Sequence record: MZ501089
Reading direction: 5' to 3' (one strand)
From: Escherichia phage KarlGJung
Length of the DNA: 64,000 bases
Each line of letters opens with the position of its first letter. Within the stretch, counting starts at the first letter, position 1. Shown piece after piece: positions 1 to 2,471 of this stretch. The notes under the pieces were generated by a model that was not told the DNA's origin, searched no databases, and worked only from the letters and a program-made list of their open reading frames with translations. The translations under genes were made by a program, and so were the position numbers.

Positions 1-692
1 ACCGTGACCGTGTACGCATTAACGGTTCTGGATGGATTGCTAGACAACCGGGTGATTGGGGCAACCAATGGCGAGTAGAAGCTCCATTATTCGTTGATCA
101 TGGTTATGTTTCACAGGATTGTTATTATCCTATTCTTAAAGCAAGAAGCGTTATAACCAATCAAGGATATAGCACCGCTGTTGACTTTGGTATGCGTCGT
201 ATTCCATCACAGTGGGGGCAAGCAATCATTCGTGTCGGATCCACGGAGGCTTCTCCTGATGCTGGACACCCACAAGCTGTGTTTGAATTCCATCATGATG
301 GATTCTTTTATACACCAGGAAATGGTAGCTTTAGCGATGTGTATATTCGTTCTGACTCCCGTCTCAAGATTAATAAAGAAGAATTAGAATATGGAGCGGT
401 CGAAAAAGTTTGCCGACTGAAAGTTTATATTTACGATAAAGTTAAGTCTATTAAAGACCGTAGTGTTATTAAACGTGAAGTTGGTATTATTGCTCAGGAC
501 CTTGAAAAGGAATTACCGGAAGCTGTATCTAAAGTTGAAGTTGATGGATCTGATGTTCTGACAATTTCTAACTCTGCTGTGAATGCTCTTTTAATTAAGG
601 CTATTCAGGAAATGAGTGAAGAAATTAAAGAATTGAAAACGCCTCTCTTTACTAAAATTGCTCGCAAAATTAGTAAATATTTTAAATTCTAA
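1..692 (+). CDS. 37: Long tail fibre distal subunit gp37, C-terminal fragment (5' end outside window), ending in an intramolecular-chaperone-like domain
   Basis: Frame 3 open from nt 3 to TAA at 690-692; C-terminal motifs SDSRLKINKEELEYGAVEKV...GIIAQDLEKELPEAV...LLIKAIQEMSEEIKELK; followed by gene 38 and t. Confidence 0.7.
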   Translation, partial: RDRVRINGSGWIARQPGDWGNQWRVEAPLFVDHGYVSQDCYYPILKARSVITNQGYSTAVDFGMRRIPSQWGQAIIRVGSTEASPDAGHPQAVFEFHHDGFFYTPGNGSFSDVYIRSDSRLKINKEELEYGAVEKVCRLKVYIYDKVKSIKDRSVIKREVGIIAQDLEKELPEAVSKVEVDGSDVLTISNSAVNALLIKAIQEMSEEIKELKTPLFTKIARKISKYFKF

Positions 693-696
693 CAAC

Positions 697-715
697 AAGG
701 GGGAAATGCCCCCTT
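697..715 (+). other. G5/C5 stem-loop between genes 37 and 38, just 5' of the gene 38 Shine-Dalgarno
   Basis: Inverted repeat aagggggaaatgccccctt read directly. Confidence 0.45.
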
Positions 716-728
716 TGGAGTATAAATT

Positions 729-1511
729 ATGGCAGTAGTTGGTGTTCCTGGTTGGATTGGAAGTTCAGCCGCAAATGAAACAGGACAGCGCTGGATGAGT
801 CAAGCGGCTGGTCAATTAAGATTGGGTGTTCCTTGCTGGATGAGTCAATTTGCAGGTCGCTCACGAGAAATTATTCACACGCTTGGAGCAGACCATAACT
901 TCAATGGTCAATGGTTCCGAGATAGATGTTTTGAGGCAGGTAGTGCACCTATAGTGTTTAATATTACGGGTGATTTAGTATCATATTCTAAAGATGTTCC
1001 TTTATTCTTCATGTACGGAGATACACCAAATGAATATGTTCAGTTAAATATACATGGCGTAACGATGTATGGACGTGGCGGTAATGGTGGTAGCAATAGT
1101 CCTGGCTCAGCTGGAGGTCATTGTATTCAAAACGATATTGGTGGGAGACTAAGAATTAATAATGGTGGAGCTATTGCTGGCGGCGGTGGCGGCGGTGGCG
1201 GCGGATATTATTCTCCTTTTTCACAAATGAGATTAACCTTTGGCGGTGGTGGTGGGCGTCCGTTTGGTGCACCTGGCGGATCTATTGATATGCAATCAGG
1301 CGCAACTGCTGGTACTATTTCTGCACCTGGCTCAGGATCCGTGAATGGTATCTATAATGGTGGAAACGGTGGTGAAGTAGGTTCCGCGGGAGGTAGATGC
1401 AATATTCGCGGTCAAGGATCTGAATATAATGGCGGCGCTGCTGGTTATGCTGTCATAGGGTCTGCTCCAACGTGGCAAAATGTTGGAGCAATATATGGTC
1501 CAAGAGTATAA
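729..1511 (+). CDS. 38: Receptor-recognising adhesin gp38, T2/T6 type with glycine-rich motifs
   Basis: 260 aa track ORF; SD GGAG; several Gly-rich blocks including nine consecutive Gly (nt 1179-1205); position between 37 and t. Confidence 0.75.
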
Positions 1512-1541: not shown

Positions 1542-2198
1542 ATGGCAGCACCTAGAATATCATTTTCGCCCTCTGATATTCTGTTTGGTGTTCTAGATCG
1601 CTTGTTCAAAGATAACGCTACCGGGAAAGTTCTTGCTTCCCGGGTAGCTGTCGTAATTCTTTTATTTATGATGGCGATTGTTTGGTATAGGGGAGATAGT
1701 TTCTTTGAGTACTATAAGCAATCAAAGTATGAAACATACAGTGAAATTATTGAAAAGGAAAGAAATGCACGCTTTGAATCTGTCGCCCTGGAACAACTCC
1801 AGATAGTTCACATATCATCTGAGGCAGACTTTAGTGCGGTGTATTCTTTCCGCCCTAAAAACTTAAACTATTTTGTTGATATTATAGCATACGAAGGAAG
1901 ATTACCTTCAACAATAACTGAAAAATCACTTGGAGGATATCCTGTTGATAAAACTATGGATGAATATACAGTTCATTTAAATGGACGTCATTATTATTCC
2001 AACTCAAAATTTGCTTTTTTACCAACTAAAAAGCCTACTCCCGAAATAAACTACATGTACAGTTGTCCATATTTTAATTTGGATAATATCTATGCTGGAA
2101 CGATAACCATGTACTGGTATAGAAATGATCATATAAGTAATGACCGCCTTGAATCAATATGTGCTCAGGCGGCCAGAATATTAGGAAGGGCTAAATAA
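1542..2198 (+). CDS. t: Holin T
   Basis: 218 aa; SD AAGGAGG; N-terminal cytoplasmic segment, one TM (VAVVILLFMMAIVWY), large periplasmic domain; matches T4 holin length and layout. Confidence 0.85.
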   Translation: MAAPRISFSPSDILFGVLDRLFKDNATGKVLASRVAVVILLFMMAIVWYRGDSFFEYYKQSKYETYSEIIEKERNARFESVALEQLQIVHISSEADFSAVYSFRPKNLNYFVDIIAYEGRLPSTITEKSLGGYPVDKTMDEYTVHLNGRHYYSNSKFAFLPTKKPTPEINYMYSCPYFNLDNIYAGTITMYWYRNDHISNDRLESICAQAARILGRAK

Positions 2199-2471
2199 TT
2201 ATTTGTTCGTATACATCTCTAGATATCGATATACACCCTCAAAACCCTCGTTGAATTCGTCGATGAGGGTTTTCTTATCTTCTTGAGTTAATTCAGAAAC
2301 AATTTTACGGAATGAATTCTGATTTAATTTTCTACCTTCATGCGTTACTCCAATCTCATTCAGAAATGCAATAAAATTAGCACGATTCTCAACAATATCT
2401 TCTCTGGAAAATTTAATCAAAATAGACGCAACAGTAATAATTTCACGAACTGTATCAATGTTTTTATTCAT
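2199..2471 (-). CDS. asiA: Anti-sigma-70 factor AsiA
   Basis: 90 aa MNKNIDTVREIITVASILIKFSREDIVENRANFIAFLNEIGV...; convergent with t with no intergenic nucleotides. Confidence 0.85.
   Translation of the reverse strand: MNKNIDTVREIITVASILIKFSREDIVENRANFIAFLNEIGVTHEGRKLNQNSFRKIVSELTQEDKKTLIDEFNEGFEGVYRYLEMYTNK

Follow-up and report, generated by a model that had tools for sequence, protein, structure and literature searches.

A nine-glycine run encoded by a 9-nt repeat in the T6-type gp38 adhesin gene of Escherichia phage KarlGJung and its in-frame length variants among related phages

Does a run of nine consecutive glycines in the tail-fibre tip adhesin of a T6-like phage only hold up the fold of the protein, or does the repeated DNA that encodes it also give rise to adhesins of different length that matter for host range? 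We examined this question for gene 38 of Escherichia phage KarlGJung (sequence record MZ501089), which lies at positions 729-1511 (plus strand) of a 64,000-nt stretch of its DNA, hereafter the window, and is an ATG-started open reading frame (ORF) of 260 aa. A first-pass annotation, made from the sequence alone, had read the glycine codons as a slippage-prone tract that could shift host range. Taken as a whole, we consider it probable that the run is a polyglycine II (PGII) helix, that it is encoded by a slippage-prone 9-nt repeat, and that variants in its length are linked to the host. The gene, the fold, the logic of alternating glycine-rich motifs (GRMs) and hypervariable segments (HVSs) and the gp37 chaperone have all been published; the finding is already known in these respects, with no new biology in the window; for a T-even phage it is nothing unusual, save for one small twist that can be tested.

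The protein matched Pfam GP38 (PF05268) over residues 47-260 (E = 3e-72, 243.4 bits) and Pfam Gp38_N (PF21721) over residues 1-42 (E = 6e-20, 71.4 bits), the gathering threshold used for both domains being 25 bits. It was identical to gp38 of Yersinia phage fPS-65 and of Escherichia phage APTC-EC-2A, its exact sequence being already public and present on 19 contigs, and T6 gp38 shared 93% identity with it. Searches of the PDB with phmmer returned 9v85 (E = 5.5e-79) and 6f45_D (E = 1.2e-49). An AlphaFold2 (AF2) model from 74 homologues, with a predicted local distance difference test score (pLDDT) of 87.2 and a predicted template modelling score (pTM) of 0.80, matched the same two structures in Foldseek (9v85_C, E = 7e-27, template modelling (TM) score 0.88, normalised by target length; 6f45_D, E = 5e-22, TM 0.75), and the predicted fold is a β-helix plus a polyglycine II sandwich. 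Every Pfam, PDB and homologue match was of the adhesin type, and together with the Foldseek matches this agreed with the first-pass annotation, in which gp38 had been called the glycine-rich receptor-binding (T2/T6) type and not the T4 chaperone type. The T4-type gp38, an assembly chaperone absent from the virion, was considered and rejected because all matches were of the adhesin type; T4 gp38 itself was set apart by its description in the literature on the S16 structure, where the two types of gp38 are reported to have very different sequences.

By its sequence, the phage is a T6-like Tequatrovirus and the ORF at 729-1511 its gene 38; at the sequence level the product is a full member of the gp38 adhesin family. 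The fibre-tip position and host receptor binding of gp38 are known from the literature for T6, PST, S16 and PP01, and on this basis, and by its identity to fPS-65 gp38, the window protein is expected to be the receptor-binding protein of the fibre tip. Its N-terminal attachment domain (aa 1-42, 729-854, plus strand; PF21721) carries Trp 9, 22 and 37 and would dock on the gp37 trimer's tip; a docking role of the N-terminal tryptophans has been described for S16 gp38 (PMC6851490). The gp38 monomer would cap the long tail fibre after the C-terminal chaperone of gp37 cleaves itself off.

In the C-terminal half of the protein, five GRMs, the first being GRGGNGG and the last GGAAG, alternate with four HVSs, and among the 74 gp38 homologues the glycine columns were invariant and the segments between them variable. 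The nine-glycine run (aa 151-159, 1179-1205, plus strand) is part of GRM2, where it was also placed by Trojet 2011. In S16 gp38, ten PGII helices are arranged in a three-layer "polyglycine sandwich" (PDB 6F45; PMC6851490), and "helix 3; 151-GGGGGGGG-158" is described as the long helix at the centre, with hydrogen bonds from its backbone to the neighbours (PMC6851490). In the phmmer alignment the nine-glycine run fell exactly on this helix 3 segment, and the blocks of the AF2 model covering residues 141-160 had a pLDDT of 97; the assignment of residues 151-159 to PGII was made by alignment to S16 and PP01. A structural role of the run as the central PGII helix presenting loop B is thus well supported by homology and by the predicted model, and the earlier description of the run as a loop has to be replaced by that of a helix carrying one. 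Loop B, or HVS2 (aa 160-171, 1206-1241, plus strand), comprises the 12 residues directly 3' of the run and is modelled as a β-hairpin by AF2. In PP01, loop B is essential for adsorption (PP01 gp38 structure, PDB 9V85, mBio 2026), and two HVS2 substitutions confer efficient plating on Yersinia in crosses of T6 with PST.

At the DNA level, the position and number of the nine glycine codons had been given correctly in the first-pass annotation, but not the nature of the repeat, which had been called a perfect trinucleotide-repeat-like tract. Codons 151-159 read GGC GGC GGT twice and then GGC GGC GGA, so that the last codon is GGA and not GGT. Tandem Repeats Finder recovered the unit TGGCGGCGG with a period of 9, 3.0 copies and 100% match at 1178-1204; read with a period of 3, the tract matched at only 82%, and the trinucleotide reading was ruled out by the period of 9. 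The nine-glycine run is more than chance or composition: the number of such runs expected from the glycine content of gp38 (24%) is 6e-4. GGC stands at 6 of 9 positions in the tract, compared with 13% of glycine codons in the 48 other long ORFs of the window (binomial P = 2.8e-4), a bias in keeping with growth of the tract by copies of one unit, and exact repetition of the unit under independent codon choice would have P ~1.4e-4. In a PGII (3-1) helix, three glycines complete one turn and rise by ~9 Å; a 9-nt step, being three glycines and thus one turn, would be expected to keep the helical register. In the helix 3 tract of loci L001-L024, the internal codons were GGC or GGT only, with GGA or GGG at the first or last codon only, and GGA makes up 30% of glycine codons elsewhere in the window. 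The lack of internal GGA and GGG could mean that G-runs and Shine-Dalgarno-like strings (GGAGG) are avoided, or that repeated slippage has homogenised the tract.

To see whether the tract varies among relatives, near-identical records were compared directly, and the phage collection was searched with synthetic versions of the locus carrying 5 units or 1 unit, chosen so that alleles with other than 3 units would rank first; the collection records are the best 60 matches per search. Among the matches listed, nearly all of ~120 T6-like gp38 records had 3 units (9 Gly), and 9 Gly was kept in >95% of the T6-like relatives. Three phages differed. PYps14T and AV121 carried TGGCGGCGG four times, that is, one extra 9-nt unit and 12 residues, and PYps32T also carried an extra 9-nt unit (12 residues), in another synonymous background (GCA followed by GGC five times and further codons), the added unit being TGGCGTCGG, which encodes a Gly>Val change. 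Because the synonymous background of PYps32T differs from that of PYps14T and AV121, at least two independent +9 events have occurred. The tract is therefore not invariant across isolates. Of its supposed proneness to length change, expansion by one unit was borne out by these three phages, but neither contraction nor a length >12 was seen among the gp38 records listed. Metagenomes, scanned with a gapped pattern built on the tract and its surroundings, gave three matches, all with 9 Gly.

Lineages with 9 Gly showed many GGC/GGT patterns, the length staying the same while the DNA drifts, and this constancy despite much synonymous change indicates that the length is constrained. The perfect 9-nt periodicity was found in the window's sub-lineage only, the same place as the expansion in PYps14T and AV121. 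In the wider family, represented by 120 cluster representatives, run length followed the HVS2 class: the T6-like and "NRG" classes have 9, "IAY" has mostly 8 and "AVS" has 6, with rare exceptions within classes.

Larger changes involved loop B itself. PYps47T has a 54-nt duplication of 18 aa, consisting of GGGGGG and the 12-residue HVS2, and ZN18 has a 51-nt duplication of HVS2 (17 aa). In both, the junctions lie in the two glycine tracts that flank HVS2 in GRM2 and GRM3, so that the second tract, GGGGG at the start of GRM3 (1242-1256, plus strand), is the microhomology partner of the first. The search for HVS2 duplications covered the junction sequences of PYps47T and ZN18; the two junctions differ, and each was unique in the phage collection (junction-specific queries, strict E-value), which argues that the duplications are independent. 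A protein-guided scan of IMG/VR returned 13 loci, of which only L008 (= ZN18) was informative. The second tract also varies on its own, Escherichia phage D5505 having four glycines and not five at this place through a 3-nt deletion. Three gp38 sequences of 216-242 aa from Logan/ENA read-set assemblies (P0021, P0023 and P0026) run from the glycine run directly into RPFGAPGG, with HVS2 missing. They resemble the reciprocal deletion of the PYps47T and ZN18 duplications, and could be defective alleles or assembly collapses, because deletion of a GRM or an HVS, HVS2 included, is lethal in T6 (Trojet 2011).

Four complete genomes were compared base by base, PYps14T, PYps15T, PYps32T and PYps47T, which form two near-isogenic pairs. 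PYps14T (166,935 nt) and PYps15T (166,925 nt) have three differences and no substitutions. One is an additional TGGCGGCGG unit in the glycine tract of PYps14T; another is an in-frame AAT codon (Asn210) of gp38 that is missing in PYps15T. Asn210 corresponds to window positions 1356-1358, in IYNGGNGG at the border of HVS3 and GRM4, and gives the specificity domain a second site of in-frame indels. The third lies in the thymidine kinase gene (PYps14T 132030 / PYps15T 132018), where a T-run has an indel of TT by which tk is split or shifted in one of the genomes; either the homopolymer was misread in sequencing or the frameshift is real. The window has the common 9-Gly/N210 allele, from which PYps14T and PYps15T are each one step away. 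PYps32T (165,733 nt) and PYps47T (165,778 nt) likewise have three differences: the capsid vertex gene shows a synonymous AGC>AGT change, PYps32T has the 9-nt unit and PYps47T the 54-nt duplication, so that gp38 is the only protein that differs between them. Over both pairs, gp38 indels account for 4 of the 6 genome-wide differences, in a gene that is 0.5% of the genome (P ~8e-9), which indicates extreme mutability at this place, selection acting on the adhesin, or the two together. In the GenBank taxonomy, PYps32T (MT515753) and PYps47T (MT515755) are listed under different species, Tequatrovirus cm8 and Tequatrovirus sf21, despite having only three differing sites.

Host ranges for all four phages were given by Hammerl et al. 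on a panel of 128 Y. pseudotuberculosis and 9 Y. pestis strains (PMC8762354, Table 1). There, PYps32T lyses 87/128 Y. pseudotuberculosis and 8/9 Y. pestis strains and PYps47T 52/128 and 4/9, and the corresponding numbers are 78/128 and 9/9 for PYps14T and 85/128 and 8/9 for PYps15T (PMC8762354). The Y. pseudotuberculosis counts of PYps32T and PYps47T differ (Fisher P = 1.8e-5), and since gp38 is the only protein that differs in this pair, the difference in host range is very probably due to a change at this locus. The responsible allele may be the 12-residue run with its valine or the loop duplication, the two being confounded with each other in this pair. In the parts of the paper considered here, Hammerl et al. 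noted the gp38 indels and called them possibly relevant, with no mention of the repeat structure or of the otherwise identical genomes (PMC8762354).

These results suggest how the variants may arise. To judge from the junctions and the repeat structure, slippage is the likely mechanism: slippage or unequal recombination inside the 9-nt repeat would add one unit and give 12 residues, and recombination between the tracts of GRM2 and GRM3, which are 36 nt apart and share microhomology in their glycine codons, would duplicate or delete loop B. Such a mechanism matches the recombination published for GRMs, which have been described as recombination sites (Trojet 2011) and in which crossovers have been described (Tetart 1998). 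In-frame length changes would then arise fast relative to point substitution, selection on the fold would hold most lineages at 9 Gly, and variants would survive, and probably matter, on some hosts. The length variants turned up mainly in phages isolated on Y. pseudotuberculosis and go along with differences in host range. Selection may likewise be the cause of the clustering of variants, and 12 glycines in place of 9 might by themselves have an effect. A wider version of this idea, in which the glycine tracts of gp38 are a built-in source of in-frame adhesin length variants that selection picks up when a T6-like coliphage meets Yersinia, is possible, but we regard it as rather doubtful.

Several observations weigh against a link between tract length and host range. 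None of the ~125 records covering the query, among the matches listed, had 1, 2 or 5 units, so the tract is not freely varying. The pairs are confounded, as PYps14T and PYps15T also differ at N210, the added unit of PYps32T also carries Gly>Val, and PYps47T has a variant of its own. The host ranges of PYps14T and PYps15T (78 vs 85/128), the one pair that bears on 9 against 12 Gly, are not significantly different (P = 0.44). In the AF2 model of the PYps47T duplication allele, the first HVS2 copy had a pLDDT <50 and was uninformative. The published experimental host-range mutations of gp38 map to HVS loop residues and not to the glycine run. Selection of the variants could also have taken place on the indicator strain used for isolation, and not in nature. 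Part of this would equally be expected if the glycine run were purely structural, its rare length variants being neutral, slightly harmful or passengers and the HVS residues alone setting host specificity; the conservation of 9 Gly, the substitutions in HVSs as the known host-range mutations, the lethality of GRM or HVS deletions in T6 and the similar host ranges of PYps14T and PYps15T all speak for this explanation. The share of gp38 indels among the differences in two independent pairs is, however, a poor fit to neutral noise unless the sites are extreme hot spots, and the host ranges of PYps32T and PYps47T differ with gp38 as their only differing protein. The length variants are also concentrated in phages isolated on Yersinia (4/7 distinct Yersinia phages with the T6-like adhesin class vs 1/~100 others), but 4/5 length-variant phages were isolated on Y. 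pseudotuberculosis and 3 of those 4 came from one zoo and one laboratory, so that the host association is not an independent sample. On balance, we consider a purely structural run unlikely.

It has also to be considered that the glycine tracts serve mainly as short patches of homology for the exchange of HVS modules between co-infecting phages, expansions and duplications being by-products. The GRM crossovers described by Tetart 1998 and Trojet 2011, the duplication junctions in the tracts of GRM2 and GRM3 and the HVS2-less assemblies, which look like reciprocal deletion products, are in line with this proposal. It is compatible with a slippage-prone, host-linked repeat, and it would explain why HVS2 is duplicated but leaves the +9-nt step within one tract unaccounted for; from crosses of RB5 with RB32, Trojet et al. 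suggested the conserved flanks of the specificity domain as a much preferred exchange site over single GRMs. As the main role of the tracts, we hold it to be improbable. Sequencing or assembly artefacts in a GC-rich repeat would be the most trivial source of length variants, given that GGC/GGT repeats are hard to assemble and that the TT homopolymer indel of PYps14T and PYps15T looks like a sequencing error. All gp38 variants, however, are in frame and of whole units (+9, +51, +54, -3) with intact gp38 ORFs, and the complete genomes that carry them were contributed by at least three laboratories (PYps, AV121, ZN18), which makes an artefact very improbable indeed.

Compared with the T6-like (Tsx-type) adhesins of T6, PST, RB3/RB5, RB14 and fPS-65 (Trojet et al. 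2011; Salem et al. 2021), the window agrees in its arrangement of 5 GRMs and 4 HVSs, in its HVS2 core, with the T6-type Q/M where PST has R/I, and in the g37-g38-t-asiA order, and there is no difference at the level of the window allele. The T6-like adhesins use Tsx as receptor on E. coli, and fPS-65, whose gp38 is identical to that of the window, needs the heptoses of the lipopolysaccharide (LPS) inner core on Y. pseudotuberculosis (PMC7917993). The gp38 proteins of S16 (6F45, Dunne 2018) and PP01 (9V85, mBio 2026) share the three-domain architecture with the PGII sandwich but have a run of 8 Gly, compared with 9 in the window, and other HVS loops, OmpC being the receptor for both.

Outside the gp38 family, bacterial contingency loci are similar in that a tandem repeat in a surface-interaction gene differs in copy number between near-identical genomes, as in PYps15T with 3 units and PYps14T with 4, which differ at 3 sites in 166.9 kb. 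Contingency loci switch a gene on or off, whereas the gp38 unit is in frame and changes the length of the protein, and gp38 shows one step only, from 3 to 4 units. In T4, duplications of His boxes in gp37 are reported to expand the host range (Tetart et al. 1996). The likeness lies in the in-frame duplication of a small receptor-binding segment between short conserved repeats of a T-even adhesin. The host gained by T4 was reportedly Y. pseudotuberculosis, on which PYps47T and ZN18, with their HVS2 duplications, were found as well. The differences are that another protein is concerned (the gp37 tip), with His boxes and not glycine tracts, that the T4 duplications were selected and tested in the laboratory whereas the gp38 cases are natural isolates known by sequence, and that the gp38 duplication of PYps47T goes with a narrower host panel and not with a broader one.

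Within the literature on T6-like gp38, the 9-nt periodicity, the recurrent duplications of one unit or of the loop and the near-isogenic pairs seem not to have been spelled out, the classical papers on K3/Ox2 host-range mutants (Riede 1987, Drexler 1989/1991) being outside this scope. Published genomes hold two natural near-isogenic pairs in which gp38 indels make up 2/3 of the genome-wide differences each. For phage-therapy engineering and host-range prediction, this gives the hypothesis that, besides the loop residues, one should vary how long GRM2 is and how many copies of loop B there are. If the tracts are indeed a built-in source of length variants, conserved "structural" glycine motifs would double as a device for host-range diversification that outpaces point mutation.

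Gene 38 follows the 3' end of gene 37 (3-692, plus strand, stop at 690-692), which runs off the left end of the window as a partial ORF and is annotated as gp37 or long tail fiber distal subunit in >30 near-identical phage records. The gp37 C-terminus had been described in the first-pass annotation as a self-cleaving chaperone-like domain, and this is well founded: an intramolecular chaperone domain of the Peptidase_S74 family (PF13884, E = 1.3e-10) occupies residues 117-175 of the 229-aa fragment (351-527, plus strand), and the fragment also has a DVYIR/SD motif (336-356, plus strand) with a predicted autocleavage site between R (348-350) and S (351-353). In the fPS phages, the site at this motif had been predicted from an alignment to S16 (PMC7917993), and autocleavage at the same place in the window is likely from the sequence; it would release the chaperone and expose the docking face for gp38.

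The 36-nt spacer between g37 and g38, from the g37 stop at 692 to the g38 start at 729, contains a G/C-rich hairpin, GGGGGG-aaaug-CCCCCU (698-715, plus strand), just 5' of the g38 Shine-Dalgarno sequence GGAG (717-720). The RNA fold of the spacer had -14.8 kcal/mol, with a modest z = -1.75 against shuffles, and its minimum-energy structure has an outer stem between 686-692 and the Shine-Dalgarno region of g38; a scan for terminator-like elements also picked up the hairpin at 698-715, on the opposite strand. The hairpin might tune the translation of gp38 relative to gp37, the fibre tip having one gp38 per gp37 trimer, or might be a stability element. Minus-strand ORFs of 45-54 aa that overlap g38 had no support.

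Downstream lie gene t, encoding the holin (1542-2198, plus strand; Pfam Phage_holin_T, 1e-116), and 3' of it the convergent asiA (2199-2471, minus strand), so that the canonical g37-g38-t-asiA order is confirmed in the window. Its first 2.4 kb has 99.3-99.7% identity to Tequatrovirus genomes (PYps15T, fPS-65, JK23, Paracelsus and others), and the near-identical Tequatrovirus genomes are all annotated with this order. Scans of the whole window against Rfam and for tRNAs gave no matches. A terminator-like hairpin with a 14-bp stem and a T-rich tail (2241-2273, plus strand) lies 3' of gene t, inside the 3' coding end of asiA.

Two database entries among the gp38 homologues deserve a remark. The representative of the 90% cluster of the window protein (P0001) is named "receptor-recognizing protein [Bacillus cereus]" at NCBI (PJZ22119.1) and lies on a 171.5-kb contig, which is almost certainly T4-like coliphage contamination of a Bacillus assembly. 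Another entry (P0034, 303 aa, labelled E. coli) has Peptidase_S74, GP38 and Gp38_N matches in one ORF, which suggests a fusion of the gp37 chaperone with gp38, or a frameshifted or misassembled g37-g38 junction.

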